A DNA stretch of 64,000 bases, from positions 248,001 to 312,000 of the forward strand of contig ML978134.1 of NCBI GenBank assembly GCA_010015805.1. Reading direction: 5' to 3'. This document shows, piece after piece, positions 9,268 to 64,000 of the stretch. The DNA is from Rhizodiscina lignyota. Taxonomy: Eukaryota. The notes below the pieces were generated by a model that saw only the letters and a program-made list of their open reading frames with translations, did no database searches and had not been told where the DNA came from. Position 1 is the first letter of the stretch. Each line of letters starts with the position of its first letter. Made by a program: the position numbers and the translations under genes.

Positions 9268-9733
9268 GAGGCAAGACTAGAGTATCTCTGGAAGCTCAAT
9301 CCTACGTTCTTTACAGTGTTGATAGGCAGAGCGAGACTATTACTGAAGATTTGGTTTTACGTTCTTTGTAGCATTCATCGGGGGGTGAGATTATCTTTGA
9401 AAGCTTAGTTCTATGTTCTTTGCAGTGTTGGTCAAGGAAGTGGGACTATCTCTGAAAGTTCAGTTGTCTATTCTTTGATGTGTTCATCAACGGAGCAAGG
9501 CTATCGCTAAAGGTTTGGTTCTACGTCCTTTATATGCTCATGGAAGGAGCGAGACTATCTCTAAAGGTTAAGTTTTACGCTCTTTATAGTTTAATTCGAG
9601 GAGGTGAGACTATCTCTAAAAGTTTAATCCTACATTCATTATAGTGTATATCGAGGCAGCGAGACTATCTTTAGAGGTTTCTTCCTCCATTATTTACAGT
9701 ATTCATCAGGGAGGTTAGGCTATCTCTGAAAGC
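9268..9733. repeat. Tandem array of nine degenerate 54-55-bp units
   Basis: Core TAT(C) recurs at about 9283, 9338, 9392, 9447, 9502, 9556, 9611, 9666 and 9721; approximate consensus GCGAGACTATCTCTGAAAGTTTAGTTCTACGTTCTTTACAGTGTTCATCGAGGGA. Confidence 0.92.
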
Positions 9734-33742: not shown

Positions 33743-35395
33743 TGCGGAAGCTGTGGCAGGGCTCCGCCGAGAGATAGATAGAAGACGTATCGATCGGAGG
33801 CTTTGGAAGCAGCAGAAGAATGTCACGATGATCTTGGGATCGCCATGGAGGAGGAGAAGACGAGACTACGAACGCGGACTACCGCAGACTCAGGTTCGAG
33901 GTGGTGGTGAAGTCGCGCCTGCCCAGGCGGAGCAGAAGGTAGCGGTCGACCAAGACGTGCGCCAATGCCAAGCGCAGTCTCACAGGAAGCAAAGAGTTTC
34001 GGGTTCGGCGCTGCTTGTGGACTATTTGTTCTGCCAAGCGTGATGGAGTCTCAAAGTTGCTTGTTGTGCCTGTCAGAGACGTCGGCTGTGCGGCGAGTCA
34101 GCGAGTCGCGCTCAAAGGACACTGCCTTCATTTGCCCAGGTTCAGTGCGGACGCGTCAAAGCTGGAGAACCAAAGCTGTCGCTGTGCAACCTTATGTTCA
34201 CTTTTATCTGGCAAGCAAGATCTGATGAGATTTTGTGCCAATAGCGCTGCATAATTTCCAACTTGTCCGAGCCTTGGAATCGTATCATGAGGGCGTCACA
34301 GGCGTCGCGAAACAGGATCCCAGCGCTGATCATACTGACGTCGGGGGTCGCTGTGATCGCTCCAGCTATGACTTCGACCTCTCCTACATGGCATGTCGGA
34401 CTTCAGCCTTATTTATCGTGGTGCTATAGAGGCTTCTCATTCGTCACAAAGTATTCGTTTTAGACGCTTGACTATGAACTGGTTCATATTCTCACTCTAC
34501 CGCAATAATGCAGTTAATCTCGTAATCACTGCAAAACCTCGGATGAGTCGTGCTGTCCTTTCCGAAGGCGTCGTATGTGTCCTACTTATCGATGAAATGA
34601 TTCCTCGATTAAGTTCAAGGAGGTCTCTTTGAATGTCTGCGCAGTTGCGCCTTCAAGCTCCCTGTTAAGTCGCATTTCGGAATTCAATCCAACGACTACT
34701 TCGAGATGTCAGGCAGCTTCTGATCTTTTCCAAAGCTCTCCCCAGAGCCTTTCTACTCCTCCATCAGATCTTTCCTTGGACATTGTTTCGAGAATTTAGT
34801 GCACCTTGACTCCTCTTCCCATTTCAGTGCCCGGAAGCTCCGTCCCACTATCTTCAAAAGCTGACGCCAGATGCGCCCATGCCCATAGTGTTTGCTCAAG
34901 TCCTTGTACTATACCTATAGACAACTACGTGATCGTAAGGGCATGGTAGTTGTATGCCGATACTCGGGAGCATGCGTGGGGTTTGATCTTTACAAATGTC
35001 CATGCAGATTGCAACCAGCTTCCGCCGCGTATCTGGAAGCCTCACTTGATTCGTTTTCTTCAGTGCAGAGGTAATTTCAGAGTTCGATCTCATCGAAGAC
35101 GATGAATATTCGTCCTTCCTTGGGAATGTCGCACAAACAATCTCTTTACTGCCGTTCGACCCGTTCGACGTTGTTGCTGAACACTTGTGCACAGCAATAG
35201 TGATAGAGTCACATGCTCACCACGACCAGATAATCTCGCTCTTCACTTCAAACACTCTTTTTCATTCACTTCAATTGAACACGAGTCTCATACATATGAC
35301 GTACTTCCCTAAGCTAGTTTCTCGTGAGTGAATAAGACCTACAACGACGTCCTTTCCGGGATGATAAGAAGCGAATCTTCCAAGGCAGGCCTAGC

Positions 35396-35625
35396 AAGCT
35401 ACTCCCTGATGACCTTAAACGTAAACGGCCTACTATATGAAAGCTTCTGAGAAGTACTGAAGGCGTCTGTAATAGACTGGCTCTGTGAACATTTCGCTCG
35501 CGATAAACTACTCCGTGATAACCTTAAATATAAACTTACTAATATATAGAGGCTTCGTAGAGGTATAAAAGGCGACTGCAAGAGAGTGGCTATATGGACT
35601 GTTCGCTCGCGGGAAGCTAGATCCT
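35396..35625. repeat. Degenerate tandem duplication with ~109-bp period
   Basis: ACTCCCTGATGACCTTAAACGTAAAC (35401) vs ACTCCGTGATAACCTTAAATATAAAC (35510); both units end TTCGCTCGCG. Confidence 0.75.
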
Positions 35626-38567: not shown

Positions 38568-40281
38568 TTACAGCTTAGTCTCTTGCCCCGACATCCTTCG
38601 AACGGGGCCGAGGCCAGTCACTCCCAGTCCTCCACCACCACTACCCCCTGCCGCACCACCCCCGGGTCCTCCGCTCGGGCCTGCGGGAGGGGTACCCACT
38701 CGACCCCTCTGTGCCTGCGTCTGCTGCAGCCTTGCGCTCATCAGCCAGTGCAACTGAGCGCGCATGCTGTTGATCGCGGCATTTGCATGTGCCATTTCCT
38801 CCCTGTTGCGCTGACTCTCGTTTATGATCATCATGGACGAGCGCGCGTCGAGCTCCGTAAGCGCTGTCTCGATGCGAGTCAGCTCCTCCCGGAGTGACTC
38901 GTGGAGCGACAGCAGATGCTGCGTAGGGGTGTCGAACGGGGCTTCTGACGCCGCTGATAGAGCTTCGTTCGGAGACACAGGATTCGATGTGGATATATCC
39001 AGATGTGGCGGTGCGCTTGTTGCTGAGGTAGACGACGGGTTGGTGTAGAGAATATTCTGCATAGCTGTAATGCCACCTTCCAAGATTTGAACTTTTCGCT
39101 GTAGTTTTTCGTGTGCGGAGCGTTGCTCGTCCTGTTCGGTTTTCTGCTTTGCCAGAAATGGTGCCATAGTCGCAATGGGGCAGTTGAGCACGTGGTCGTT
39201 GACTGCACTCCGCTTGCCAAAGAAGTGACACCCATACGGTTGGCCGGCACAGACAGCTGAAAACTCCAGACATGTCTGCGCATGCCTAGCACGATCGTGC
39301 ATACGAACCTCTTGCTTGCAGAAGCAACATGGTGCAGCGGCCTTTGTGCAAACGTTGGTCAAGTGATTCTGTCACACGTTAGATATGTGGCTCTGAAAAT
39401 AAAATTCAATGGGAATGACAAACATCAAGGTCCCTCTTCATCAGTGTATCGTCGCAGAACTCGCATTTCACTTCCACATGAAGGCATTCGTTGTCCGCGT
39501 CCTTGCGCCAAATTGTCTGCTGGCAGCCGTCATGCCTGCAAGGCACTTCAGTCATGCTGCAATAAGAATCCACATGATTTTGTACTTCGCCTCTCTTGAC
39601 ATCAACACCACAGTGGTTTGGACATTTGACCACAAGCTCGTCGAGCATTCTTGTGACGTATCTGGGGGCCGGACGTTCCACCACCTTGCTGTGTGGTCTG
39701 CGACACGTAGGACAAGGCCTTGCTACAGCATTGCGCATCTCATAGCTCTTTTGCAGGCAGTCTTCGCAGAAGGAGTGGTCGCATTCGAGCTGTATCGGCT
39801 TGAGGAAGGCACATTGGCAAATTGGACAGACGAGATTGGTGTCCACATTGGATATGTAGTCGAGTGCTCGAATGTCGACTTTGCCAGCTTCCTCAACTTC
39901 AGGTTCCGACGACCGTGGACGTTCATCATCGAGCAATGTATCCAACTCATGCTCATAGTCTCTTGACCACCAACGTGCCTCATTCTCGCGTACTCGGCGA
40001 TCCATACGATCAATCAACCCGTTGTAGCCCTCGTAGTCGAAATCCGGGTCCGCCTCGTCCATAAACGTTTGTTCCTCCCTTTGCCTAGGAACTGGAATCT
40101 CCCAGTCAGAAAAGATGCGATCGATACGAGGAACATCGTCGGAATCGAGGCGATAGGTGCGTTCCGAAATCGGGCGGTGGAATAGAGGACCTCGTCCGCT
40201 CGCCCTACGGCTGCTACGTATAGATGTCCGACGCGGTTGCGCCGGCCGCTGGGCTGCTCCGTTGGCATCAAGGTCAGACAT
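38568..40281 (-). CDS. RING finger + TRAF-type zinc finger E3 ligase
   Basis: CPICQC...CDHSFCEDC...CPTC (C3HC4), followed by TRAF-type Cys/His repeats and a coiled coil; intron 39369-39423. Confidence 0.9.
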
Positions 40282-40583
40282 GATGGTTCGGAGTTCGAAT
40301 CAGTGATGGAGCCTTGATTTCGACACGAAGGTCAATTGAAGGAAGGGTGGAGTGAGAGCATGACGATTCCGCCGAGGGACATGTAGACCCGGCTCGGCCC
40401 TTGATCCATGCCAGCCACACCAGTGTGGCGCCCGCGCCGTAACGTCAGCTCTCTTCATGTTCTCCAGGCACTCGTAATCCTCCTTCCACTGTACAATCTT
40501 TGAATTTGACGATCTGAAGACAACTTGGGGCCTCTCTAGCATTTACTCTCCTTCACTGTCACAATCTCCTTGCGTCTGGCACA

Positions 40584-41436
40584 ATGTCGACTCCTAATCC
40601 ATCCCAACTCTTCCTCCTCGCCGACCACATCAAACTCTCGCTTCTCGAGCGGCAACGCGCAATCTCCCTGAATCTCGAGCCTAGTGCTCATGACGGACAA
40701 ATATCTCGCTCGCTAGACTCGCTACATACCGGTGTGCAAGCATTAGAATCACAGCTCTCGCGCTCAGAAGATGCGTAGGTCTACTATCATGTTCACTAGG
40801 CGTCCGTTTCCAAGCAATTGACTCTCGAGCAGGACCCTCCGCGATCAGTATGAGCGGATAAAATCACAATTCGACGACCTCTCCTCTCAATTCAACGCAC
40901 CAACGATAACGACAACAACTCCCTCGCAACAGCCCACGTCCCCCACACTCACGACTCCAAACGATCCGTCCCTAGCCTCCGACTTCAGCGCCGCCCGCTC
41001 CAAACGCTCCCCTGCCCCCAACAAATCCGTCCGCTTCACCGACGACCCCACCGGCACACCCGCCGACCCCTCCGCCGCAGGTCTCTTCCCCTACCGTGAC
41101 GAGCCCGATGGCGCGCCCGACCAGTCCGAGCTGTCGAACCAGCAGATCCACGAGTACCACTCGGGGGTGCTGCGGGAGCAGGACGAGCAGCTGGACAGGC
41201 TGGGCGAGAGCATCGGGCGGCAGCGGGACCTGTCCATCCAGATTGGCGACGAGCTGGACGACCATGCGATGATGCTGGACGAGGTGGACGAGCGGGTGGA
41301 TCGGCATCAGGGCCAGCTGGATCGCGCGAGGAGTCGCTTGGGGCGAGTGGCGAGGAAAGCGAAGGACAATTGGAGCATGACGACGATTATCGTATTGATT
41401 GTGATATTGGTGCTTTTGATTGTGATTACGAAGTAG
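40584..41436 (+). CDS. SYN8: Qc-SNARE syntaxin-8
   Basis: LLADHIKLSLLERQRA N-terminus, SNARE motif EQDEQLDRLGESIGRQRDLSIQIGDELD and a C-terminal TM; intron 40775-40832. Confidence 0.9.
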
Positions 41437-41820
41437 ATGAGCAATGTGGGATGATAGATATTCATGGGCGGCTGGGGCTCTATATATGATTGGCGCTTGC
41501 TGTGGTACGGCGGCGGATATGGAGATTCGTCATTGTCAGAGTGTCAACAGGCACTTGGGGCGCAGTTTCAATGGATGCATGGTCAAAGCTTATTGCAAGA
41601 GCAGTGCCAAGGCTACGCCGTGTGTGAACAACACAGTGTTGGTGGTATCAGTGAAATAGAACAGATACATTCACCTCCGTGAGGAGATCCATGCTTTGTA
41701 AAACACCAGTTGAGTATTTAGTGCTCGCTCTCACTTGCGTCTACCATCTTCAAACAACTTCTTTTCTCATCAAGTTGCCTTTCTCACAAACCCAAGTATC
41801 AAATCAGTTGTCTTACAGCT

Positions 41821-42754
41821 ATGGGAGACTACTCCTCTATCACCACAGCCCTCGACTTGAGTTCGAACTTCGACGATGCCAAATACTCGGACTTGACGAT
41901 TCGATGCGGGGAGAAGACTTTCAAAGTGCACAAGATGATCTTATGCACCCAGTCCGAGTTCTTCGTCAATGCGTGTGAACGTGGGTTCAAGGTATCTAAT
42001 ATCCCACCAATTCTGCTCTTTATTGGAAGTACAACTGACAGCCATTTAGGAATCCAAGACCAACGAGATCGACCTTAGCGATAACGATGTCATCCTTATC
42101 GAAGCATTCCTGAGGTTCATGTACAAGGGCACTTACGAGGTGCCTCAGCCGGAAGGATACAAGGTGTCTGAGATCTGTTTTCACCTGGCGATGATCATCA
42201 TCGGCGACAAATACCTCCTGCAAACGTTAAAAGGCCACGCCGCGAAGAGAGTTCGACTAGCTCTTAGGACACGAGACTTCTCAATGAACGACCTCCTCGA
42301 CAAGGCACCAGCAGTATTCCAGAGCTTGCCCAAGCAAGATTTGGGAGCCCGAGAATCGGTGGCATATGCCGCGGCCTGGGAATATGCGATTTGCTTGTTG
42401 GGCGAGAAGCGCGGACTCGCGAATGCGGACAAGTCCACTGCCAAACTAAAGGCCGCTGTCATGAAGGATGCAGCCTTTGCTGGAGAAGTTGTGCAAAGCC
42501 TGTGCGACATGATAAGAGATGGCAACATGAATGATGCTGAGATCTTCGCCAACAAAGTTAAATGTCCACGCTGCAAGCGCACAGAGCGAAAACACATACT
42601 CGATAACAGGCCCGAAGATGTCGCCGAGTGGAAGTGCGTGAATTGCACACGGCGCTTGTATCAGAAGGAGTGGAGTGCCATAAAGCCAGCCGATCAAGGC
42701 TCTGGCAAGGCGCAGAATGCTGGGGAGGACCATGAGACACTGGCTGAAGAGTAA
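41821..42754 (+). CDS. BTB/POZ protein with C-terminal CxxC..CxxC (paralogue 1)
   Basis: YSDLTIRC...FKVHKMILCTQSEFF...GFK|ESKTNEIDL; intron 41992-42049; CPRC...CVNC. Confidence 0.88.
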
Positions 42755-43436
42755 GTTGGGTGTGCAGGAACCGAGGGAGACGCCCTACCATTCTACTACC
42801 TCAAGTAGCGGAGTATGGCAGGCAGGCAGACTTAGATGCTCTTCTATATTACGATTCCGGTTGGATCCAAGAATGGCATTAGAGGGCACACAGTGGTGTC
42901 CTATCATAGATGGAGTCTTCCGGGCTCCCGTCGTGGTGTTCATGTATCGATCAATAGGCGTTTTGCGTGCAGAAGAAATTTAGCATTTGAATTCCAAGCT
43001 TATGTTTCAAGCATTTCTGCTGTTCATCAAAACTATATTGATGTACTGGCGAGGTCTTTTTTGATGTAATATTGCATGCTGAGTTCGGGTTTTGGTGCAA
43101 GCACGTACCTTCGCGTTTTCCACCAGTCCGAAGTGGTTAGCGCATGGCGCCGTGGCGCGTTCTCCTGACGCGATTGAGTATCCCCTTCATTTTGCTTCCT
43201 CTTAGTGAACTTCTTCCTTAGCTCCTTCATGTGCCGGATATGCATTCTGACATCCTCAGCAACAGATTCACACCGTTCACGCTCTAGGTTGTTAGGGAGT
43301 AGCTTGCTAAGCCTGTCTTAGAAGACGTTATCAAGGAAAAGAGACGCAGCAGGCCTCATACGCTCATGAGAAACCAGCTCCTTCGTACCACAGCTTCTAC
43401 AGACTCTTGTGGGAGCGACTTCAGTAGTATCTAACA

Positions 43437-44960
43437 ATGGCAACCCAAACCCCCGCAACAAACCATAACAAGGAAGCTTCGTTCTTAGAGCAACTACCTA
43501 CAGAGCTCCTTCAAGAAATCGCCATTGAAGCTTGGCGGCCTAGCGAGCGCTTTAAGGGCAGGATGCCAACCGGTCCCGACGAGCTTGCAGTTGGAGATTG
43601 TTCTCGGTTAACCGCTTTACGACTCTGTTGCAAAACCATTTGTTGCAAGATCGAGCCTTTGTTCGTGTCCCTTTTCAAATTTCCCTGGCTATCCGCGACC
43701 ACGCAAAACCTCTCACATCTGCAGAAGATCTCGTTGCATCCAAGGTACAGACTAGCAGTTGAGGAGATCACAGATTTTACTACGTTGAAAGAGGTAGATG
43801 AGGATAAATACCGTCACTACAAACGCAAGGTTCGCGAAGAACTCGAGGCAGGACGACCAGACTCTGCCATCGCTCGCATCTGCAGATTATTTTTGAGAGA
43901 GCAACCTAATGATGTCTTAAAGGATCTCAGCTACCTAGAGAGATCAGGTTTGAGCACCGCAATGTTGACACTCGCTTTTCGGGACCTGCCAAATCTACAG
44001 GCACTACACATACTTCAGTCTGTCTCGCCTCTTCAATTTCGCCGGTTCACCACAAAGTATGGCCGCCCTTCCCTGTCTCATACCGTATCGACGTATCTTG
44101 CAGCCGCAGGCCTGGCTGGAAAGGAATTGAGACGACTCAGAGTGGGGTTTGGTGAATTAGAGGAATGGAGTATTCGGTCGGGGGTTGCTGTGCAGAATCT
44201 GCCTAAACCCTATTTCTCTCAGTACTCGAAAATGGAACATCTTGAGATCTTACTGAGTACACAAGACAACTTTCATCGAGGTATGTTGAGGAAACACGCT
44301 AGATTCATGTTTAGTCTCAATCTCATGGCTCTGCTAGGCCCAGATGACTGGATTCACTATACCGCTGAATTTCTCTCGGCAATGCCCGGACTCAATACAC
44401 TAAAACTTGGGTTTGATGACTGGATATACACGAAAACAATCTTTTCTAAGGTAGCAGATGTTCATTTGCCGTCTTTGACAATCCTCTGTCTCCATGGCCT
44501 TGAAATGCAAACAGAAGATTTCATCCGCTTTATCTGTCGCCAACCGGCACTTGAGCATCTGGAATTGTGCAACTGTAACTTCACTGGAGAGAGCTGGAAG
44601 GCGGTGCTCGAAACTTTACACCAATTCTCGAGTCTGCAGTTTCTTCGCATCTACCAAGTCGCAGAGAATGGCCTTCGTACGAGCTTCCCTGAAACGGGAG
44701 ATGTCATTGCCGAATCTGATTCAGACTTTCCTGATGTAGCGGAACACGAATTAGACCCATATCCTTATCGTATCACTGTGTGGCCGTCGGAAGCAAAGCG
44801 TGTCCGATTAGCTCAGTTCATTGATGACTACACTCTGACGATACTTTCGGCCCAATCTGATGAGGAAGATTATTATGTGTGGTTGGTGGTCATGAACGTG
44901 AAGCGTCGAATCTTGTACAGTTGGGCTGGAGAGTTGATTGAAACTGAAGGACCATTTTAA
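43437..44960 (+). CDS. F-box-like / LRR-like protein (paralogue A)
   Basis: N-terminal LEQLPTELLQEIA...LRLCCK, repeated LxxLxL segments; probable in-frame intron 44281-44337. Confidence 0.78.
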   Translation: MATQTPATNHNKEASFLEQLPTELLQEIAIEAWRPSERFKGRMPTGPDELAVGDCSRLTALRLCCKTICCKIEPLFVSLFKFPWLSATTQNLSHLQKISLHPRYRLAVEEITDFTTLKEVDEDKYRHYKRKVREELEAGRPDSAIARICRLFLREQPNDVLKDLSYLERSGLSTAMLTLAFRDLPNLQALHILQSVSPLQFRRFTTKYGRPSLSHTVSTYLAAAGLAGKELRRLRVGFGELEEWSIRSGVAVQNLPKPYFSQYSKMEHLEILLSTQDNFHRGMLRKHARFMFSLNLMALLGPDDWIHYTAEFLSAMPGLNTLKLGFDDWIYTKTIFSKVADVHLPSLTILCLHGLEMQTEDFIRFICRQPALEHLELCNCNFTGESWKAVLETLHQFSSLQFLRIYQVAENGLRTSFPETGDVIAESDSDFPDVAEHELDPYPYRITVWPSEAKRVRLAQFIDDYTLTILSAQSDEEDYYVWLVVMNVKRRILYSWAGELIETEGPF

Positions 44961-45728
44961 AAAAGGATTGCTGCCAATCACAGCAGGGTCAGTTTATGTT
45001 CAATGAGAAACACTTAATCTTGTGTCTAATCTAAATCCTGGCAATGGTGACCTGTGGGTTGATTGGTCACGAAACACCACACGTCTTCTCCAAAGTACTG
45101 AAAGATGATATATACTCATACCAAACGTGCTTCATAACCATCATCCCCAAAGCCGCTGAGGCTGGCATTCTTTATAAAACTATGAGGTGAATGCCCTATT
45201 TATGGGGTACAATATTGAGCTGAGGGGAGTAAACGGCCCCTAAGCATCTTTGCCCACTCCTAACCAGATTGACCTGGCTGCCCCGGCGGCGAACTCCTTA
45301 ATTTCGCTACGGGATGAGAATGGACGCCCATATTCCGGAAGAGCGATTGCGGCTCAATAAGTAATGGAGACGTAACCTTGATGCAGGTAGTCTTGATCCA
45401 GCCTTGGATGTCGAGATCTGCTCCCGATCTTAACTCCAAGCACGTGACTTCGCGTCTTGGATGGGAGTTTCCAAGTACTGGCGCGTTTTGCTAGCGCGAC
45501 GGTTCAGCTCCTCAGAGGATGAGAGCATTTCTTCTTCAACAGCTGCCATCTTGCGTTCACTCCCTTGCCCTTATTTCCATTGCTCCCATTTTGATTCTAT
45601 TCATCTATCCGCATCGGAGAATAACAAAAAGTCGGCCCCAGCTTGCGAAATAGAGTACCGCATAGCCAAGGTATCTGGCCTCCCTAACCTCTACGTCAGA
45701 CCTATAGATTTTCGACGGTACGCGATTG

Positions 45729-45786
45729 TGATGTACGCTCCAAAGCACCCAGAATTGACTTTTCAGAGATAGTCTCGTCTACCCTG
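45729..45786. repeat. Single inverted copy of the 55-bp repeat unit
   Basis: GATGTACGCTCCAAAGCACCCAGAATTGACTTTTCAGAGATAGTCTCG aligns to the reverse complement of the 9.3-9.7 kb consensus. Confidence 0.75.
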
Positions 45787-45876
45787 AATTGCAAGAGCTG
45801 CTCGCGCTTTGGCATTAGAGTACAGTTTGGTCGGCGATAACGAACCTCTTCTCTCAACACCCTCGAGTCCACCGGG

Positions 45877-47355
45877 ATGCCGAGCCGTGCGTCAGGTCGT
45901 TCAAGACCAGCAAAGCGGCGTAAGAAGTCGCGAACGGATCAGCCGCGGCAGGCGTCTCTGTTGGAACAATTGCCCACAGAAATTCTTCAAGAAATCGCCT
46001 CGCTTGTCTCGCTTGAGGACGCCAGCAGATTGCACCCTCTGCGCCTCACATGTCGCAACGTACATTATAAAATTGAGGATGTGTTTTCGCAAGCATTCAA
46101 GGGGTGGCGTGCAGCTCTTTCCCCCGCTAAACTTCGGATCTGCAAGATATCTCAACACATTCACAGTATCGATTCAAGGTCGAGACAATCATTGACGTAA
46201 CCAATACGAAGCGGGAGTCTGATGAAGAGTATCGCAACAACAGACACATCTTTGTCCGCAGACTAGAACGAGACCGAAATGAACCCTGGGCCCCGGTTAT
46301 CCAGAAAATAATTGATGACATGGACGCTTGTCAAGAAGGCTTCAGGCGTCTAGAACGATCAGGGCTGGGCACCACAATGTTGACGTCTGCATTTCGATCC
46401 TTGTCCAACCTCAAAACTCTCATCATCATTGCGCAGCAGAAAGTTAGGCCTTCTGCACCAGCCGAATATTATGGGCCCGGATCGATCTCACACGTCGTTT
46501 CCTCTTATCTTGCCGCGGCAGGGATGGCTGGAATAAAGCTGAAGTCCCTCCTGGTGGGCACTGGAGCGATAACCCACTGGAACATCAAGCCTGGCGTCGC
46601 CGTAATGGATCTCCCCATGTCATTTCTCCCACTCTATGCGAACATAACATCGCTGCAGATCAAACTCAGCACAAAAAACCCGACGTACCTAGGTGAGTAA
46701 TCAATATTATGACACACTCAAAGCGGAAGACTTAATGTATTGTTTAGGTTCCACGGATTGGATTCGCCACACGTCTCTTTTTCTTTCCGCGATGCCCCTG
46801 TTGGAAGAGTTGTACCTCTCTTTCGATGATCGAATCCACACAGAAGCTATCTTCTCGGAAATTGTTAATAAGACCACATGCAGATGGCCCAATTTAAAGA
46901 GACTCCAGTTGATCGGCTTCCAGTTGAAAACAGCAGATTTACTCTCCCTCCTTGGGCGTCATCAGGAGAATCTGGAGAGATTCGCGGTGCATTACTGCGA
47001 CTTCACGGGAGAAAGCTGGCGCAGTATTCTAGAATGCCTTAGAGAGTTTCCAAGTCTTCAGGATCTGCGCATCATCTACATCGCACAAGACGGATGGCGA
47101 ACTTCATTCCAGAACAGCGGCCATGTTGCGGAAATCGATGAGCAGCTCAATACCGTCGATATTTTTTTGGGTGAATTGAAGTTTGATGGGTGCCCCTGGG
47201 CGCTAGTCCAGGACTTGAACAAGTACTGCGTGGTGGCGGAACATTGGGAGAATATACCGGCACGGATCGACCAGTTCTTGACTGACTTTACTGTAACTGG
47301 TCTTGCCGCTGAATCCGATGTCGATATCGAATTGGGCGACCTGTGGTTGGATTGA
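45877..47355 (+). pseudogene. F-box-like / LRR-like paralogue B with a +2 frameshift
   Basis: LEQLPTEILQEIA and LERSGLGTTMLT align to paralogue A; frameshift in CAACACATTCACAG (~46153-46166); intron 46693-46747 at the same position as in paralogue A. Confidence 0.8.
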
Positions 47356-48017
47356 GCCCCAATTTGCCAGATTCACTAAACTGCTAGGATGTACAGCGCC
47401 TTCAATTACGATGGACTACATTCAATACAGATGTACGACCTCAATAAACACTGGCTGAAGTGTATTATATTGGGCACCCAAGTATGCTGAAACTCTCCTT
47501 GAAGACAAATTCGACTTGCCGCAATCTATTACAAGGCATTGAGCTGCTAAGGTATGTGAGCCTTTTATAAATCTGAATTTAAAATATGCCAACAACGTAG
47601 CCCCAGCGAAGCGTGTGCAGCGAAGCAGCGTCCCAGCAAAGCAGCGTCCCAGGCATACTGCATGAAAGCTGCAGGGATGCTCTCGCTTTGCTAAATCCGG
47701 CATTTCCTGCCCCCTTTCCACCTTCATCGAGGTCAACCTTCATCCTTGAGAGAACAAACCTCGTCGGGCAAATTGGTCGAATCACATAATTGAAGATCGC
47801 AATTTCAATTTCTGACGGGCACCTACGACAAAATGTACACACTCTTCGGTCACACCGATTCTATCTTGCGCAATGTGCATTGGTAAATTCTCATTCCATA
47901 TGCATGCACACCTCTATACTTTTGTACTTCGCCTTGAAACAGACTCCCTGTGGAAGTGCTCCAGCAATCCATAAGTTTCTTGTAAACAGCATGCAAGCAA
48001 CTCGATCCTTTAACCAT

Positions 48018-49521
48018 TCATTCCCAAGCTGAACCTTCTGGAGCCCCCCAATCGTCGTCGTTATACTTCCTGCCAGCTTCACAGTTAAAGAATCTACCGT
48101 AATAGAAAGGGATAGCGCCTTCGACAATCGGTGGATCCTCTTTCATTGGTTCATACAGGAAATCCTGAATCCAGCTCGTCCGTTTTCGCTCCCAGTCCCT
48201 GAAGCGACCATGACAACTCTCACAGCCGCAACAACCGCGGGGGCACCACCTGGGGCTTCTTCTGTATTCTCGGCGGCATCTCCTGATTCCACGGTCGTTT
48301 CGTGGAGTATTCTCAGAGTTAATTATTTTGAACCCATGGGGTTGTACCACCGGCAAATAGTCTGGCCAACTGTCGAAGAGAGGAAGACCGTCGTCAACCA
48401 CCTTCGATGCTTCATATTCCTCGTCGCGCAGCTTGACATATTCATCCCAATCCTCATACTGTGGAAGTTTGTTGTTTTCGAGTGTATCAAGGCCCATGGC
48501 TCTTTTCATGTTTTCGAAGAACACATCCCAATCATCCAACGCAGCACCCTTCGCAAAGCCATGGCGGCAATTGTGACAGTATGTCTCTTCATATGCCTCT
48601 TTAAATTCCTTTGAGCCATTCTTGTTTTCCTTGGAAGAGTTTTTACACCTCATACAGCGCCCTTTTCCGTCTTCGTCGTTATCCCGTGAGTAATAGACAG
48701 GCCACATCTCGGATATCCGGTGGCTGGAGGCAAGGCCGAAAGCGACGGCGGATTCGGGACAAGCATCTAATATCTCTTTGAGAGTGAACTGAGCGCAGTC
48801 GAGTTGCATCTTGAAGTTGGTATGTTGAAATATCTCGAACACGATGGGGAATTCTTCGGCAATCTGCTCAGCCAAGGGGTCGCGGAGCGAGCTGTCCTGG
48901 GGCAGAAGGAGTCCACAAATAGATGGCACTATGCAAAGGAGCTCGCCCACGTTAAAGCAATGCCGCTGTATCATATCGGTATACTGTCGGAGTGCAAAGT
49001 GTCGCAATGTATCGATTCCGTACTCGTCTCCCAAGGCGTACATTGCCGCATGGAACCCGATGTGTGACACGTCGTTCGGCAGCTTATATGAACCGCAGTA
49101 CATGAATCGCATCAGGCTGAAGACGATGGCAGGGTCCTTGTGAGTCAGATCAATTTCGCCGTGATTCGCTTCCTGTGTCGAGTCAGTTTGTTTCGATCGA
49201 AGAATTCTTCATATTGCTTCGCTGGAAATTCAATAACGAATCCACACATCGACGACGCACCTTGAAGGGACCCTTGAGTGCATTGCGAAAGAAGATGGAG
49301 CCACAGCACATGACAATTTTATGCGCTTTATATGCTTTAGTTCGACTGCGAATGATAAGGTCGGAGAGTCTTTCATCGTCGAAGTACCTGTGGTTTCCCT
49401 CAGTGTCCTTGGCTCTTGTGGTTTTCTCATTCGAGGCAAGTACTCACTCCGAAAGGCCCATGTGCAGTACGAGTACTGAGTTGCCATCTTTGTCTAGAGT
49501 ACTCCATTTGGATGATGACAT
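48018..49521 (-). CDS. BTB/POZ protein with CxxC..CxxC (paralogue 2)
   Basis: YFDDERLSDLII...AHKIVMC...GPFK|EAN; introns 49388-49447 and 49173-49260; CMRC...CHNC; PFYYG tail. Confidence 0.87.
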
Positions 49522-50025
49522 TGTTTCTGTGGGCTCTTCCCTCGTGGAATAAGGGCGATGATTAAGCTGGCTGGTAACGCTGGTTTGAGGAGGAGCAGCA
49601 ACTCCGGGACCGAAGACAGAAGTCGTTTTGAAAGAAAGTTGGAAGAAGACAACCTTTGAAGTATGAGGAGTGAAATATATAGGCGCTTGTGCGCGCTAAA
49701 CTGTGTTTCATCACCAACCAAGTGCCATGAACTGTTACTTTTGCATTATGTGAGGCAGTGTACGTCGTCAGTGACAGAAGTTTGAACACAGCATTTCGTG
49801 AAGATAAACCATGATTGCTTGAAGCCTAATAATACTGAATGAATCTGAAGCACCAGCCCTCCTCCAGTGCCGAGAGCTGCATTGTGACAAGTTTGACAAT
49901 TTAGGGACGTCCTCATGAATTACACGGCCCAAGTGACATCCGTCACAGAGTTTGCTGGTTCGAATCCAGCGGCTATTTCTCTCATTTGCCCCCGCCCTCC
50001 TTCCACATACCTCAGCTGCTTGCAT

Positions 50026-51572
50026 TTACCCACGCATTCTCGCAGACCACGCTCCAGCACGTGTTTGTCCACACGGCTTACGGAGTCTGCCTCCCTGGTG
50101 ATTCTGGAACATGCCGTAGTAGAATGGCACGTTCCCGTCAACGGTCGGCAGGTCTTCTTGAGCTAGTCCGTATAGCATATCGTGAATCCAGCTTGTTCCC
50201 GTTTTCTTTGTCGTGGAGCTTGCAGATTGACCTCTGCCTTCTTCATGTCCACGTCCACTTCCTCGAGGAGGTCCTGCGGTATCGTCGCCACTGCGGACCG
50301 AGAGTTTGTGATCGCTGGTCGAGGAGGAGGAGCCGGCCCAGGTGAAAACAGATTGATGATCCTGCCGAGTGTTGAAGAACGGAAGGCTATCGTCGGCTAG
50401 TTTGACCTTGCCGTTGACTAGTTTGACCTTGTCGTTGACTAGTTTGAGCTTCTCGTCGACTAGTTTGATCTTGTCGTCGGCTAACTTGGCCTCCTCGTAA
50501 GCTAATTTGAACTCGTCGTAAGCTTCATCCTGAGTTTTGGAGTACTCCAGCCAATCTTCAAACGGGGGAAGATCATCATCGTCGACATCTTCCAAGTTCA
50601 GAGCCTTCTTTTTCGATTTCAAGAACTCGTCCCAGTCTTCTTGCACGAGATTGACGAGACACTCGACGCACTCTGCGCCAGCTTCGATAGCTCTACTCTC
50701 CTGCCGAGTCTCGTCAGCAGACCAACCGCACACCCCGCAGGGAGCCTCTCCGCCTCGATGAAGCATAATCCGAACCGTATAGAAGCGTCGGTTGGCAAAG
50801 AGAGCAACGTCAGACGCAAATTCCGGACAGATATCCAATGTTTGCTTGAACATGAACTCAGCACAAGCGATTGTGTCGATCGTCAAACTGTGAACGAAAG
50901 ACATGTCTTGGGCGACGCGCTGCACAAGAGGTTTGCGGAGGGCAGTCTTTTCGATCGGGAGAAGTTCGCAAATGCTCGGAACGATACCAAGCAGCTCGCC
51001 CATATTGAACCTCCTCCTTAGCAAAGCACCCTCGTAATGCGTCAAGGCAAGGTCTTGGAGTGTTTGGATGTCATATTCGTCGCCGAGCGCATACATGGCC
51101 GCGTGATACCCGACGTGTGACACCTGGGGCCTCGAAGGGAGTTCGTAATTTCCGACGTACATGAATCGCAGCATCTGATTCATGAGGAGGGGATCGTGAT
51201 GGCTGAGGTCAATCTCATTCGCATGGGACTCCTGTTCGACACGCGTAAAGTATTCCCCCGTCTCGGAAGCATACACCTCACAGTAAACATACTTTGAACG
51301 GACCCTCCAATGCCTTCTGAAAGAACTTTGATCCGCTGCATAGCACTATTTTATGTAGCTTGAAAACTTTCCACTGGCAACGAATAACGACATCTGAGTG
51401 TTTGCCGTTGTCGAAGTAACTGAGACACGTTAGTGTGCTTGAGTGGGCATTTCAGAATTCAGGTACGCGGTTTGGAATACCTTTCCATGCCCCTCTTCGC
51501 CATCAGAACCGAAAACTCGGGCAGCACGGCAAATGACATGTTGCATGGTGCAATTTCTCTGAACGACGCCAT
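50026..51572 (-). CDS. BTB/POZ protein with CxxC..CxxC (paralogue 3)
   Basis: YFDNGKHSDVVIRC...LHKIVLC...GPFK|ESH; introns 51420-51480 and 51232-51292; CGVC...CVEC; PFYYG tail. Confidence 0.87.
50389..50488 (-). repeat. Coding 21-bp tandem repeat (about 5 units) within BTB paralogue 3
   Basis: KLADDKI KLVDEKL KLVNDKV KLVNGKV KLADD; DNA unit about AAACTAGTCAACGACAAGGTC on the minus strand. Confidence 0.9.
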
Positions 51573-51918
51573 TGGAATCCTCGGAGTTTGATCTTGTGTC
51601 TCGCTCGGTTTGCCGACGGAGTCAAGAAAGGATGAGTTGTGAGGTCAGATTGGAGGTGCACGACAAAGGAAGTGGGAGAGGTTGGGAGCAAGCTTGGTGT
51701 TTAAGCAAAACAAAAAAATCGAGGCTTGGCGTTCTGAGTCAAAACAACCTCATGACGTAGAAAATCTGTGACAATGAGAGATGCACGTGACTACTCTAAT
51801 GTCTCGAGGTTGATCCGATGTTTTTAACAGCCAACTTCAATAATTCTAGCGCCATGGAGCGCACAATTTTGATCTCGGTATGACAACCAAACTGAGTGAG
51901 AACCACCCTCTGAGGCCA

Positions 51919-53287
51919 TCAGCCATGTGTGAATTTCCAAGGGAACCTCTCTTTCTCGGCCAGGTAGTCCTCGTACCGCATATCGCCAGGCTTCGGCCGC
52001 CGCGGGGCCTCGTGATTATGGAAATCGCCATAGTAGAACGGCAGTTGGATCTGCTCCGGGGTCTCGACTGCGTTGCTGCCTCCAGATACGCATGTAGTTG
52101 ACAGATCAATGCTGGCTGAGTCCCCAGGAGCATTTCCCATGCCTGCAATTTCTCTTTGATCTCGGGCACTAGCAGTCGAGAAACTTGCGGGTGTATCCTC
52201 GATGTCCAGCATCGTATCTGAAGTATCATTCGCAAACGGTAACTCAGCATTGGCGTCGATGTTCTCCCTTTCATGCCTCCGCCGAATCTCGGGCCATTCG
52301 TGCAAATTAGATAGAAGTTCACCATCTGGTATACCTTCCACACCGGCATCTCTCTTCTCGTCGAGGTAGAACTGTTCCCAATCTTCCTGCATGAGGTTTG
52401 TTCTGCAGTTGGGGCAGAAACTTGGAGACCAACGATAGGGTCTTTCATGGTGGTAAGGGTGCATGGTATAACAGCGGAGGCACATATAATCGTAAGGCTC
52501 TGCGTGGTCTTGGCCTGGTGAAGAGAGGACCATTATGTTCTTCGAGAGACGGGTGGTAATTGCCGCAGCAAAGTCAGAATTCGATCGGACAGCCCGTTCG
52601 AGGGTGTCGCTGGCCAGCTGAGTTAGGCCGCACCTCAACTCGGCCCCTGAAGAAAGGACGGACGGAGTATCCCAGCAGATTGTCAATACAAGCGGTTCGA
52701 TAAGGAGGTGGTTCCTTGGCGATGGCAGGAGCTCGCTGATGGCAGGAGCAATTGAGATGAGCTCGCCCATGTTGAAGCCGGCTTGGTTAAGCAATTCCCG
52801 GTATTGTCGCCTTGCAAAGTCCATTAATGTGCGGATGTCGTATTTGTCTCCGAGAGCGACCATCGCAGCATGAAATCCAACATGCGAAACATTGACTTCG
52901 TCCGCTCTCTCTCCCCGTGGCAGGCCATAGCGTCCTCGATACAGAAAGTCCATCATCCGATCAACGAGCAATGGATCATCATCACTTAAGTTGACCTCGT
53001 TGGTTTGCGCTTCTCTGAAAGGCCCCTCGCATAGATTCCTGAAATATTCTGAAGCGCTGCATAAAATCACTTTATGAGCTTTATAGGTCTTCGAGCGACA
53101 ATGTACGAGAAAGTCGGAATGGACGCCGCTTTTAAGGTACCTTGAAATAGTCAGATTATCACACAATCTGTACAGAATTAAACACTAGGTTCACTCACGC
53201 TGCCAGTCCACTATCAAGCATGCTACATGCCATTGCTTCGCCTCTAGACGGAACTTTCTCATCATCAAGGTAGTGGAACTCAATCAT
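51919..53287 (-). CDS. BTB/POZ protein with CxxC..CxxC (paralogue 4)
   Basis: HSDFLVHC...AHKVILCSASEYF...GPFREAQ; single intron 53141-53198; CLRC...CPNC; PFYYG tail. Confidence 0.88.
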
Positions 53288-53651
53288 TTTCTGTGGCACC
53301 CAAGATGGATAAGGTAAAAGTTTGAAGAGAGAAAGAATGAGGTTAGAATGCGCTAATATATAGATGCAGCCGTGTTTGAGGCGGTGTCTGATGCAAGCGT
53401 GAATGGTAGCCAAGTCGCGCAATGACACGCTGTGAAAACGGGGCACAAGACATCTGTCACCACGAGACTCAAGGAAACAAGCTTTTCGATCGATAGGTTA
53501 TACGGATAGGGCGCCTCGGCTTGATACGCATCATCGATCCAATATATACACACAAACTTCGCCAAATACCGCAGGAGTTGTACAGTCAAGATCTATTGAT
53601 ATAGGGTATCTCGGTTATCGTTAGAACAGGAGGCCCATGGCCGCCTATTTA

Positions 53652-55999
53652 TCAAGGAAGCTCCAGCGCCTTCTTTGTGTTTTCGTAAACGACGTATGTC
53701 TGCCAATCGTAAGCAATTCGCACAAGCAATGACAATCACGCACGCCAGGATGCAATGTCTGTGCCGACAAACATGGCACGCAAGCGCAGACGGAAAGCAA
53801 AAACTCACAATCGACATAGCGGGGACGACCTTCATCAAATTCGGCGTCAGCCCTTTAAACAAGCCCCTCACTCCCTCGCCTTCCACAGTCTTCCTTGCGA
53901 CATCCCATAGGCCCGTATACGTCCTCGGATGCAGCGCAGTGCCCTGCGCCTGCAACCTCGTTCGCAGAAGATTGAGCGGGTACACCAGACTTGCGCCCAA
54001 CGCACCCGAGAAGCCTCCAATAGCCGCTGTTGCGAAGCCGCCCGGCGCAGCATCGTCCTCATGACACCCGAGCCTGCGCGCATTTCGGCGCGATATGGCG
54101 GATTTGAGGAACTCGAACGTGCCGAGGTCGATGGCGGCATAGGGAAACATCCCCGCCAGGCCTGCTGGGAGGCCACGATAGAAAGCCCGATGGCCGGATT
54201 CGCGCCACATCTTGCGGGCGGTTGTGACTATGAGAGCGTTGCCGTGTGCGCCTCCAGCGACTGTCTCGGTCTGGACGCGGCTGGGAAGTCTCCATGAGCA
54301 CATGGAGTCCCGACGTAGCAAGGGAGAAAAACTTACAATTTCAGCGTGTCAAGTGGGTATACTGCGAACCTGCGCCTTATTAGATACTATGTCATACTCC
54401 TCAGCTTAGATCATACGTACTGTGCTGTCATTCCAGCCAAGCCGCCAGTGACGAATTTTGACCAGCTCGAAATGTTCCTAGGATTGTCGTGGCCCTCTAA
54501 CCTCGCAAACATACGTTTACAGGCCTACTCAGGCGTTTAGGGACTGCGATACTATATTGTGTGAAGTAAACGTACCTCGTAGGAGCCGAATTTGATAGCC
54601 TTTCAACTTATCAGCTAATGTAAGGGAATATGGCATAAATAGCATGAAAAACGAACCGACTCGGGCATAATTTTTACCACCTAGAGAGGCTATCAGTGAG
54701 AACCATGAAGCCGGATACAATGACAGTACATACGTTCAAACCATTGCCTGTCAAGATAAGTGATGAGTATGTTGCCTAAGACCCAAGGGAGAGTCCACTC
54801 ACCTGCGAACAAACTCCGTACGCCACCCGCCGCCCACAGATCCTTCAACGCATTCACAAGCGTCGACCCAGCGTGCTTCAATGCCGTGGCAGGAGCCCCA
54901 GCCTTTGCAGCCTGAACCGTAGCCTGCGCCGTGCCTATCTGAGCGATGAGGTAGACCCGTAGGCGGTCGAGCGGAGCGGTGCAAGTGCGTGACACAGCGC
55001 CAGAGACGGCCCCTGCCACGAAGTAGCCTGGATTTGGCAAGAAAGGAGTCAGCGCCGTGGTTACACTCTCCGATAGCGTCAACTCGGTGTCCAAATCAAT
55101 AGTCTCGCGCTCCTGCGGCGGACCGTCGACCATCACGTTGCTGTCGTGCTCGGGCGGGGAGAGGTACTGAGCGTCGAACGGTATCCGGGGGTCTTCGTAT
55201 TCCGCCTGCTCGTAGACGGCGTCCCAAGCGGCCTGCGGCGGCGGGCGGTGCGGCTTTGCAATGTCGACGATCGCGCCAAAGAAGAGTCTAAGAAATTTTG
55301 TACCTATGCTCTGGATTGTCTCGTCGCTGAGGACGACGTCTCCTTCTGGGTTCAGCATCACGGTGGAGGAGTAGTAGGAGAGGACGGATCGGAGGTTGGG
55401 CGCGGTCGCGGGGATGAAGAGTAGGAAGTTTCTGCAACGCGTCAGGATGTTTGATATCGGGGCGCAAGATGTACAGACCGCCATTCGTCGAAGCTGATGA
55501 CGCCGTCGTGGTTCGAGTCAACTTCGTCAAAGAAGTTGTCAAGCTTGGAGGAGGGGACGGCCAGGCCCGCTCGTTGCAGAGCTTCCTTCAACTCGCCCTT
55601 CTCCATCTTGCCGTCGTCATTGCGATCTATACTTTTGAACAGTATCCATAGTTGTTGTTCCGTCTGTTTCACAAAGTTCTCGAATTCTTCACCCAATGTC
55701 AGCATTGTCTCGCGATTGCTTGTGTGATGTCATCGGGAGTGTCGCTAACCATGATATGATATTCGCCCATCGTGGTTTTCGTCCATAGCGTCGAGCACGT
55801 CTTTGAGGAGGTTATCCGCATTTTTCAAAGCTATAATACTATGAGCCATGTGAAACAAATCATTGGGTCCAAGCAACATACGGTGATCCATCTTCCTCAA
55901 CCCTCTCTTTAGGTTCGCGAGATCGAGGTAGCCTCGCCTGCGGTAATCGAGCTTGTGCCATAGTGCCTCCAGTCTGGCGTCCTGGCTACGAGCGTCCAT
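53652..55999 (-). CDS. SAL1: Ca2+-binding mitochondrial ATP-Mg/Pi carrier
   Basis: EF-hands (DENHDGRIS, DRNDDGKME, DSNHDGVISFDEW) plus three carrier motifs PLDRLR, PLDTLKF and PLNLLR; multiple introns. Confidence 0.92.
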
Positions 56000-56570
56000 G
56001 TTGAAGGTCGCTGGAGCCGCCGTCACCTGTTGATTGTCATGGTTTGGCTATGAGCGGCCCCAGATATAAGTCCGACTCGTTGGAATGCACTTTCGAGGCG
56101 CATCCAGCACCTGCAAAGCTCAATTGCTGGAGAGCACGGGATGGTAAAGGCAAAAGAAAACGATGTCGGACGTTCACGGCGGGTAGTTGTGGGGTTGGGG
56201 AAGCTTACTTTTCGAGCCGTTTCCTGTAGAGCGTTGGGAATGACGTTGCTTTGGCGGTGAATGGCGGCAGAACATGGGGTTGGCCCATCAACGACGATAC
56301 GATATAGGCACCCTTTCGTCTCGTCTCTGGATGCAAGTTGCTTGCCATGATCATGATTTTATGACCTGAAGGCCCTCTTGATGGGTGTTTTTAAGCAAGC
56401 TGACAGTCTCATAGCTTCTATATCATGATCGCTGGAGCGTCCGAGTGGATATGATCACGCGTTTCCACGCGCCTCTTACTGCGATGTACTTGAAGAAATT
56501 CAAGTATTACTTCTATTCGTACGATTTTGGTGCCTCTGTGGCTCGTCACTAGGCACTGTAGCTCATCACC

Positions 56571-61991: not shown

Positions 61992-63066
61992 ATGAAGCGC
62001 ACAGCGGCAGAGGCGCTTTTGGATGCTCCTTCCGCCTCAACTGTAGTACCGACGGGAATGGAGCAATCGGATAGCAAAGCCGTGGGCCTCAAGGCGTGAG
62101 TTACTGAGACTTATTGCAAGCAGCTCATTTCAAGCGCTGATGCGGGCTAGCTACTTCGATAATGACAAGTTCTCTGACTTTACCATCATCTGCCGAGAGA
62201 GGCGCTTCAAGACGCACAAGATCATCATCAGCAGTCACTCCAACTTCTTCTCCAATGCATGCGAGGGAGGTTTCAAGGTCCATATTGAAGCCCACATTTA
62301 GTTCGGATTGGTTCTAACCCTTTTTTTTTTTTGGCAGGAGGGAAAGACCAACGAAATCGAACTTAGTGAAGACTACCCGGAAGTCATTGCGGAAATGCTT
62401 CGCTATATGTATGAAAGCGACTACGATGAACCCGCGGAAGCGTGCGCTACCAGTTTCCACGCAGCCATGGTTGGCATCAGCGACAAATACGGAGTCACAG
62501 CTTTGTACGAACCAGCCTTGAAGAAGTTCAAGTACGCATTGCGTGAGTGTCGGGGCCTAGAGGGCTATTGCAACATGAGGCACCTCTTGGAGAACGTGTC
62601 TCACATCTTCCAACTGCTACCTGACACCAATCGGGACCTTCGAGACCCTCTTGTTATAGAGGTCACGAGAGAATTTAACCTCTATCGAAGGGACAAAGCC
62701 GCTCTCGATCCCACTCTATACAAAACTGCATTAGACTGCTTGTCTGAAGCCGTGAGATCGAACTCCGACTTCGCGGCTGACCTTATCAACGCTATACATG
62801 TCCGCGAGTTCGATTTACATTCACCCGTGGATAGAACACGAACGGAGAGCTCCCACCTCCTGTGCAACGGGTGCTGGGAAAAATTCAGCCTCCGTGATGG
62901 GCATATCACTCTGGAGAATGAGATCTATTGGAACCGGAGCTGCAAGTACTCGGGAGGGTTCATATGCGATCACTGTCTCGTGAACTTGAGTCTGCAAGAC
63001 TTCACCGGCTATGGTATCACGCGTCCACCAATGGAGGAAAGGGCTCCCTTCTTCTTGTCTTATTAA
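61992..63066 (+). CDS. BTB/POZ protein with CxxC..CxxC (paralogue 5)
   Basis: YFDNDKFSDFTIIC...THKIII...GGFK|EGKTNEIEL; introns 62096-62150 and 62278-62337; CNGC...CDHC. Confidence 0.87.
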
Positions 63067-63344: not shown

Positions 63345-64000
63345 CAATCTCAATAAATACATTCTCAAGCATATTCAATCAAACTTTCAGAGATAATCCC
63401 GCTTACTTCGAGGTTCAAGAACTGCTCAGACTTGGGCATTACAGCATGCCTGGCGGCCACATGTAGTAATGTACGCATACTCTCGCATCCCTCTATCACT
63501 TTGTCGCCCTCGTCTCCTCTTGTTATCATTGTCGTGACGCTACCCGCTTCCTCCAATCCTCGTTATGAGCATGTCGGACTACTGCTCCTCCTCCGATGAG
63601 TTCGACAATCCGCACACTCTCACCGAAACTGCGTCTCAGACTAAGTTTGCCTGCGGATTTCTCAGAAACATTAACGAAGAGACCGAGAACGAAGTGTGAA
63701 TATCGAGAACTACCACTTGGGAACGGTTGTGCCTCTCACCGAAGTTCACACAAGCGCTGGGTGGAACTGGTGAACATAAGGTACCGAAGAATCTAGAACC
63801 AAAGTTTCGGAGACAGTTTTGCTACCTTGATATACACTCCAAAGAAGACATAGTTGAACTTTCAGAGATAGTCTCGCTTACTCTGAGGCATTACAACTGC
63901 ACAGCATGCCCGGCAGCCACATTGTACACATACCAATGAACCTCGAACTAAACTTTCAGAGATAGTCTTGCTTGCCTTGATGTATATTCTGGAGATGACA
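63345..64000. repeat. Inverted copies of the 55-bp repeat family, running off the window end
   Basis: AAACTTTCAGAGATAATCCCGCT (~63381), AAAGTTTCGGAGACAGTTTTGCT (~63801), GAACTTTCAGAGATAGTCTCGCT (~63856) and AAACTTTCAGAGATAGTCTTGCT (~63950). Confidence 0.85.

Follow-up and report, generated by a model that had tools for sequence, protein, structure and literature searches.

We analysed a window of 64,000 nucleotides (nt) from the genome of Rhizodiscina lignyota, a Dothideomycete of the Aulographales and a wood saprobe. The window, which corresponds to positions 248001–312000 of contig C14 (ML978134.1; the genome comprises 33.4 Mb in 33 contigs), contains a 12.2-kb interval bounded by the genes for a SYN8-like SNARE and a SAL1-like mitochondrial carrier, and occupied by four BTB genes (BTB1–BTB4) and two F-box/leucine-rich repeat (LRR) genes (FB1 and FB2). 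A preliminary description of this DNA had stated that the interval holds only BTB and F-box-like recognised genes and that a fifth BTB gene lies at 62 kb; the gene content found here agrees with the former statement, and the latter gene is BTB5. The members of both families on this part of the contig are the following (window positions, unless C14 is stated; aa, amino acids):

41821–42754, plus strand: BTB1, 291 aa, exons 41821–41991 and 42050–42754, BTB match of 54.6 bits, identical to protein P0006
43437–44960, plus strand: FB1, F-box-like with LRR, 488 aa, 57-nt intron at 44281–44337, Pfam LRR matches under the cut-off
45877–47355, plus strand: FB2, F-box-like with LRR, paralogue of FB1, frame change near 46135, intron at 46693–46747
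48018–49521, minus strand: BTB2, 451 aa, introns at 49388–49447 and 49173–49260, long tail with a PFYY motif, identical to protein P0003
50026–51572, minus strand: BTB3, 474 aa (463 from the second ATG), introns at 51420–51480 and 51232–51292
50390–50483, minus strand: in-frame tandem repeat in the BTB3 tail, 21-nt (7-aa) unit, 4.5 copies
51919–53287, minus strand: BTB4, 436 aa (418 annotated), one intron at 53141–53198, phi-x-E motif corresponding to F53-R54-E55 of protein P0001
61992–63066, plus strand: BTB5, 319 aa, same clade as BTB1–BTB4
C14 312.3–313.3 kb: BTB6, beyond the window
C14 324.7–325.6 kb: BTB7, beyond the window

Gene content of the SYN8–SAL1 interval

The models of BTB1–BTB5 and FB1, spliced by coordinates, have GT–AG introns and no internal stop codon. 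With respect to the public annotation, BTB1, BTB2 and BTB5 are identical letter by letter, and BTB3 and BTB4 differ solely by a later start codon. All of BTB1–BTB7 match the Pfam BTB family (PF00651) with scores of 46–60 bits, the cut-off being 20.5. The spliced models also bear out the intron differences reported earlier, as the first intron is missing from BTB1 and the second from BTB4, and the repeat expansion mentioned along with them is the 21-nt array in BTB3.

The clade shares an architecture in which the BTB domain is followed by BACK-like helices, a CxxC/CxxC ribbon and, often, a PFYY-type tail; BTB1 contains all these elements except the tail. A Pfam scan of the full-length BTB proteins returned the BTB domain only, with no MATH or Kelch domain. 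Averaged over the 21 pairs formed by the seven paralogues, the BTB core is 44% identical. The value is 28% for the BACK-like part and 18% for the cysteine region; in this last region, 8/8 aligned paralogues share the same four cysteines. Judging from this motif, the four-cysteine module is a probable zinc ribbon. Among the matches listed for a profile of the clade (see below), paired CxxC motifs are common (73 of 151 fungal BTB proteins compared), and the PFYY-type tail motif occurs in 11 of 24 clade members versus 0 of 125 other matches. When BTB2 was compared with P0010, one of the Logan proteins found with the same profile, the ribbon region had 11/51 identical positions, against 24/48 for the BTB core and 79/157 for the tail, and therefore the variation is localised. 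The BTB2 tail (window 48018–48400) carries in addition a Cys/Arg-rich stretch with another CxxC pair, which P0010 matches in part.

FB1 and FB2 are 39% identical over 468 columns. Specifically, identity is 28/51 (55%) in the F-box, 25% in the linker, and 60/122 (49%) and 55/119 (46%) in the two halves of the LRR part. As the LRR identity is near that of the F-box, the C-termini of this pair are not highly divergent; hence the conserved N-termini and highly divergent C-termini attributed earlier to all the paralogues hold for the BTB proteins and not for FB1 and FB2. The public FB1 model of 507 aa is a read-through of the 57-nt GT–AG intron, which coincides in position with the intron of FB2, and a paralogue on contig C13 lacks exactly the 19 residues concerned. 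This C13 paralogue is the closest one to FB1 in the genome (36% identity), a distant one being located on contig C8; it lies tail-to-tail with an unrelated F-box gene (L010:4581-6167 and L010:6618-7682; C13:362-366 kb). Foldseek matched the predicted FB1 structure to COI1, TIR1 and Skp2 (E 1e-4 to 1e-3), although the confidence of the model is low (pLDDT 55, below 50 in the F-box part). Helix/strand repeats alternate at residues 301–400 (pLDDT 70–94), as in an LRR solenoid. In addition, FB1 has an Atlas feature score of 0.97 to unnamed ascomycete F-box clusters, in which 35% of the members carry an F-box, and this match favours FB1 as a divergent F-box protein despite sub-cut-off Pfam scores. 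The genome holds one Skp1 gene.

In FB2, 388 open codons follow the frame break. The frameshifted copy of the preliminary description is present in the DNA: over 41000–54000 the contig of sequencing run X1 shows 0 differing letters and 0 gaps with respect to the assembly, and none of 37 frame-compatible splice pairs combines a consensus donor with a consensus acceptor. An assembly error is thus unsupported; since the run X1 contig may be the assembly's own source, the comparison rules out a slip of assembly at this place but leaves room for strain specificity. FB2 is a probable recent pseudogene.

Predicted structure and Cul3 interface of the BTB proteins

The phi-x-E motif, described as slotting between Cul3 H1-H2 and H5 (PMC3616122), is kept in 7/7 BTB members of contig C14, at an overall identity of about 30%. 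The model obtained for BTB5 (pLDDT 82.7, pTM 0.80) found its best matches in the BTB-BACK structures of SPOP, KBTBD4, KLHL11 and A55 over residues 21–233; against 6i2m, the alignment covered 170 residues with a Z score of 14.1 and an rmsd of 3.3. Helices 131–233 of the model align to BTB-BACK structures and are predicted to form the 3-box/BACK part. The fold search barely probed the ribbon, and the BTB fold also matches the non-adaptor POZ domains of Miz1 and BCL6 (Z 14.4). Isolated beta-bridges are present at residues 112 and 317 of the BTB5 model (window 62338–63066; pLDDT about 65), the pairing itself not being seen. There is a hint in the modelling that the PFYY-type tail may fold back on the BTB core.

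When residues 5–212 of BTB4 were modelled together with residues 8–350 of the fungus's own Cul3, ipSAE values of 0.80, 0.79 and 0.80 were obtained, versus 0.00 for the best control, with at least 98% contact agreement between runs and a partner pLDDT of 81. The modelled interface comprises F53 and E55 of BTB4 and residues 33–52 and 128–143 of Cul3, the tightest contact being that of F53–E55 with Cul3 36–39; BTB4 residues 110–113 and 148–154 also contact Cul3 in the model. BTB4 was the sole paralogue tried, and the prediction was made without alignments of our own. Among microbial pairs, the score mark used for such complexes is reached by 51 of 78 that are solved and by 2 of 108 that are mismatched; the corresponding counts for eukaryotic pairs are 39 of 65 and 2 of 126. 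For BTB4, the outcome points towards the cullin binding that had been proposed for these genes; as like complexes have already been solved, it shows likeness rather than binding, and the score may stem from that likeness. A BTB protein of Neurospora, BTB1, is reported to co-precipitate with Cul3 (PMC2996332). In conclusion, from the motif and the BTB4 model, Cul3 binding by the BTB proteins of contig C14 is probable, and a cullin-adaptor function is likely for the BTB proteins and plausible for the F-box-like pair.

With the Cul3 adaptors SPOP and KLHL/KBTBD (PDB 4j8z, 4eoz, 4ap2, 6i2m) these proteins share the BTB domain with 3-box/BACK-like helices, the phi-x-E motif and the modelled contact with Cul3 H2/H5, but they carry a small CxxC/CxxC module and a variable tail in place of MATH or Kelch domains, and identity is below 26%. 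Ascomycete BTB proteins such as Neurospora BTB1 belong to the same general family (PF00651), with frequent paired CxxC motifs; the present clade differs in being locally clustered and in having the PFYY-type C-terminal motif. FB1 and FB2, in turn, resemble the F-box/LRR receptors Skp2, TIR1 and COI1, as well as ascomycete F-box clusters, in their N-terminal F-box-like signature and LRR solenoid; they differ in scoring under the Pfam cut-offs and, for FB1, in the low confidence of the model.

Origin, distribution and age of the cluster

The genes next to the cluster are the following:

38568–40299, minus strand: RING/TRAF-type zinc-finger gene (Pfam zf-TRAF 6.7e-09, zf-C3HC4 3.3e-06), ancestral neighbour of SYN8, outside the island
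40585–41436, plus strand: SYN8-like SNARE gene, left boundary (Pfam SNARE 7.9e-10; name taken from the preliminary description)
53652–56047, minus strand: SAL1-like EF-hand mitochondrial carrier gene, right boundary (Pfam Mito_carr 6.4e-32, EF-hand_7 2.5e-13; name of the same origin, domains tested, stop position read from the sequence)

A metagenome scan with a SAL1 exon gave 56 foreign loci, 19 of which have at least 5 kb downstream. SYN8 was seen in nine of the 56: in six it lies tail-to-tail with SAL1, and in three 8–9 kb away on the other side. In the six tail-to-tail loci, which represent three lineages by nucleotide identity, the gap between the SYN8 and SAL1 match ends is 341–718 bases, versus 12,379 in R. 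lignyota. No foreign locus matches the BTB profile, which caught all known BTB genes in a positive control, or the narrower FB profile. The short foreign gaps without BTB genes therefore indicate that the island is a gain in a conserved interval, and the insertion between SYN8 and SAL1 is upheld. Adjacency of the two genes was found in 3 of the 19 loci with enough downstream sequence, so the gene order is often rearranged. The RING-TRAF gene accompanies SYN8 in 6/9 foreign loci (L026, L028, L029, L037, L049 and L061), none of which holds a BTB gene; it is thus older than the island. The upstream RING-TRAF E3 gene of the preliminary description exists, and its membership in the expansion is rejected by this synteny.

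The GC content of the island (0.489) is lower than that of the blocks of housekeeping genes on either side (0.570 and 0.537). The island carries no signature of repeat-induced point mutation (RIP), the indices (0.61 and 1.32) being the same as in the flanks. Profiles of both families detected no extra member in the intergenic gaps of the island, and an Rfam scan of the window gave 0 matches.

Genome-wide, Pfam BTB matches fall in 59 places, or 58 loci after merging two matches in one frame. In 20,000 uniform simulations, four BTB loci fell within 11.1 kb 4 times and seven within 35.5 kb 0 times; the genes are not scattered at equal density over the genome. Searches with BTB4 and BTB5 placed nine members of the clade: seven on C14 within 36 kb (289.8–325.6 kb), where the genes for SAL1, a cyclin, eIF3h, Med16, a sirtuin and PI-PLC are interleaved with them, one on C3 and one on C13. 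The C13 member, BTB9 (L009:4477-5382; C13:550.5-551.4 kb), in which the first half of the BTB domain is unrecognisable and an in-frame stop or short intron occurs, is probably decayed. The island is not unique: for 22 of the 58 BTB loci, another one lies no more than 5 kb away (null mean 0.98), and there is a second cluster. The latter, on C4:1734-1748 kb (L005:968-3009, L005:5439-8439, L006:606-6532), consists of seven BTB genes of another subfamily with a C-terminal Cys/His motif, which surround a PigL_N/SesA-NACHT-ankyrin NLR-like gene. As a possible immune-type locus, this second cluster is more convincing than the SYN8–SAL1 island. F-box-like matches number at least 59 and are nearly all scattered, close to the 60–90 F-box genes quoted for filamentous fungi (10.1101/349894). 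Within 10 kb of a BTB locus we found 1/59 of them, versus 1.56 expected, and that one is the island itself; without enrichment of F-box matches near BTB genes, the two families as a coupled module were rejected.

Word searches with BTB4 and FB1 recovered only the fungus's own proteins, with no homologue of FB1 outside its genome. A profile of eight paralogue exons did reach relatives, so these blanks reflect sensitivity. The profile matched 2,733 proteins at E ≤0.001, 150 of which were listed; among these, the eight own proteins are followed by ten Logan proteins at 1e-33 or better. P0010, P0012, P0013, P0015 and P0017 each lie on a contig of 30,025 nt and, given this equal size, apparently share a single one; two other Logan proteins lie on a 9,210-nt contig. 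The best identities of the Logan proteins to the R. lignyota paralogues are 32–49%.

A quick IQ-TREE tree was built with 44 rows, namely 24 clade candidates cut to 330 residues and 20 chosen outgroups; in it, the 24 candidates form one group (SH-aLRT 98), and several branches are long. The grouping is partly circular, because these candidates headed the matches of the profile, for which eight of them had been used. Sub-lineages join BTB1 with two foreign sequences (SH-aLRT 99), BTB4 with one (96), BTB2/3 with two (90) and BTB5/6/7 with four (86). Own and foreign sequences are thus mixed in unequal numbers, and the genes are not strictly one-to-one orthologues. Identical four-fold sites between paralogues are near random (22/67, 14/54, 19/58 and 9/32), and with synonymous sites saturated dN/dS among paralogues is unusable. 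These sequence comparisons date the duplications as old, and relatives apparently share the locus. A Logan Cul3 is 82% identical to that of R. lignyota, and the latter (L077 / P0154; C3:2587-2590 kb) is 55–60% identical to other Dothideomycete Cul3 proteins, so the lineage is long-branched in general and the divergence of the adaptors weighs less. Local duplicates, copy numbers that are unequal across lineages, and pseudogenes characterise the cluster, and the birth-and-death locus put forward earlier is supported as local turnover of one BTB clade.

Possible roles of the cluster and its interspersed repeats

All together, the cluster is probably an old, lineage-restricted set of cullin-RING ligase substrate adaptors that has evolved by local duplication and loss. 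The BTB clade has expanded in place, with seven genes in 36 kb, of which the SYN8–SAL1 gap contains four; a small F-box/LRR family has two copies in the same gap, one of them broken. What the two families have in common would be a permissive interval and not a pathway. Each BTB protein is predicted to bind Cul3 through the phi-x-E motif and the 3-box helices, in the manner of SPOP and KLHL proteins, and its most variable part, the four-cysteine probable zinc ribbon with its flanks, may decide the binding partner of each paralogue. The F-box/LRR proteins may act via Skp1-Cul1, and substrates would be ubiquitylated and then degraded. These substrates are most likely the fungus's own proteins, under lineage-specific regulation, and much of the change in copy number would be near-neutral. 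The unstable F-box and MATH-BTB clusters described in nematodes and plants, and the expansions of Agaricomycetes, are alike in tandem duplication, pseudogenes, intron changes and a conserved cullin-binding end; here, the family is far smaller (nine BTB-clade members found) and the duplications are old, not recent. The pattern is thus already known from plants, worms and mushrooms, and the locus is a good example of it. Many fungal genomes contain expanded BTB and F-box families, few substrates of which are known. The locus offers a compact test case: a bounded insertion in conserved gene order, seven intact Cul3 interfaces and a sharply localised variable region.

Several observations weigh against this explanation. 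Frames are intact in 6/7 window members of both families despite saturated synonymous sites and, together with the 79/157 identity of the BTB2 and P0010 tails, this argues for selection on individual paralogues, pure drift being insufficient. The F-box assignment is challenged by FB2 scores under the Pfam cut-offs (F-box 19.5 versus 20.5 bits, F-box-like 20.5 versus 24.3) and by the lack of any Pfam F-box match (PF00646/PF12937) in FB1. Moreover, NACHT genes lie closer to BTB genes than a uniform null predicts, which would better fit adaptors that catch viral, bacterial, transposon or non-self proteins via a hypervariable cysteine ribbon and target them for degradation, an arms race maintaining the sub-lineages. 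We regard such a role, which the preliminary description had suggested as defence or non-self surveillance, as unlikely, albeit with data on its side. The divergence between BTB2 and P0010 is concentrated between invariant cysteines, copy number varies between lineages, and one copy is freshly broken; a NACHT-ankyrin gene lies within the C4 BTB cluster, and, of 28 NACHT matches, 6 have a BTB locus at 20 kb or less (1.41 expected, P 0.003; F-box control 0/28), an association that weakens at shorter range (3/28 at 10 kb, P 0.039; 2/28 at 5 kb, P 0.059). However, the test was run at three distances, its uniform null takes no account of the general tendency of variable genes to cluster, and none of the 28 matches, a lower bound, is on C14. 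Pfam also found no NACHT, NB-ARC or HET domain in the open reading frames of the island, NB-ARC and HET not having been searched genome-wide. The LRRs of FB1 and FB2 are not hypervariable. A defence role has been proposed, as a hypothesis, for nematode F-box genes (PMC8665587), but lineage-specific F-box genes of Arabidopsis are described as being under relaxed selection with no link to pathogen response (PMC3030570), and a fungal-immunity review (PMC10197012) contains 0 occurrences of ubiquitin, F-box, BTB or cullin. If defence were true, ubiquitin-based recognition would be added to fungal immunity. A wider proposal, that filamentous ascomycetes own a Cul3-based surveillance arm made of clustered BTB-BACK-zinc-ribbon adaptors near NLR genes, with sub-lineages long-lived across species, a hypervariable ribbon reading foreign or non-self proteins and the conserved PFYY tail as a clade-specific docking element, appears distinctly unlikely; our literature search found no Cul3-based fungal surveillance system of this type.

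Stage-specific adaptors for fruiting-body or spore development are very unlikely as an explanation. They have a precedent in the Agaricomycetes, where tandem F-box and BTB/POZ expansions are developmentally regulated (10.1101/349894) and, for mushrooms, tandem-duplication expansions of both families are tied to development (10.1101/349894, PMC10282164), and sub-lineages persisting in relatives fit stable roles, but that precedent belongs to a different phylum. More improbable still would be a role outside ubiquitin ligases, with BTB proteins serving self-association or acting as Cul3 decoys and weak F-boxes no longer binding Skp1. The equal Z score of the Miz1/BCL6 POZ domains, the sub-cut-off F-box scores and the failure of Pfam to recognise a substrate-binding domain after the BACK-like part would suit it; the conservation of phi-x-E in 7/7 proteins and the canonical modelled Cul3 interface speak against it. 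As a decoy would keep both of these features too, they disfavour pure self-association alone.

Two decayed interspersed repeat families are found next to the F-box-like genes:

43275–43388, strand not assigned: repeat family 2, 5' of FB1, with 26 further genomic matches at 69–87% identity
45729–45805, plus strand: repeat family 1, 5' of FB2, with genome matches

Family 1 (about 100 nt, with a 20-nt core) has 149 genomic matches at ≤3 mismatches versus 0 for the control, and is also present at window positions 9279–9732 and 63356–63985; a 55-nt tandem array at 9.3–9.7 kb is AT-rich with RIP-like indices. For four of 54 copies, a BTB locus is present within 3 kb, versus 0.47 expected. A shared promoter element was rejected, since 40 other copies occur in all orientations to the neighbouring frames, with a BTB match at 1/40; the family is probably a transposon relic. 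Family 2 (about 110 nt) also occurs at window positions 35312–35619, and for 3 of its 26 matches an F-box match not belonging to the island is found within 3 kb, versus 0.27 expected in a post hoc count.

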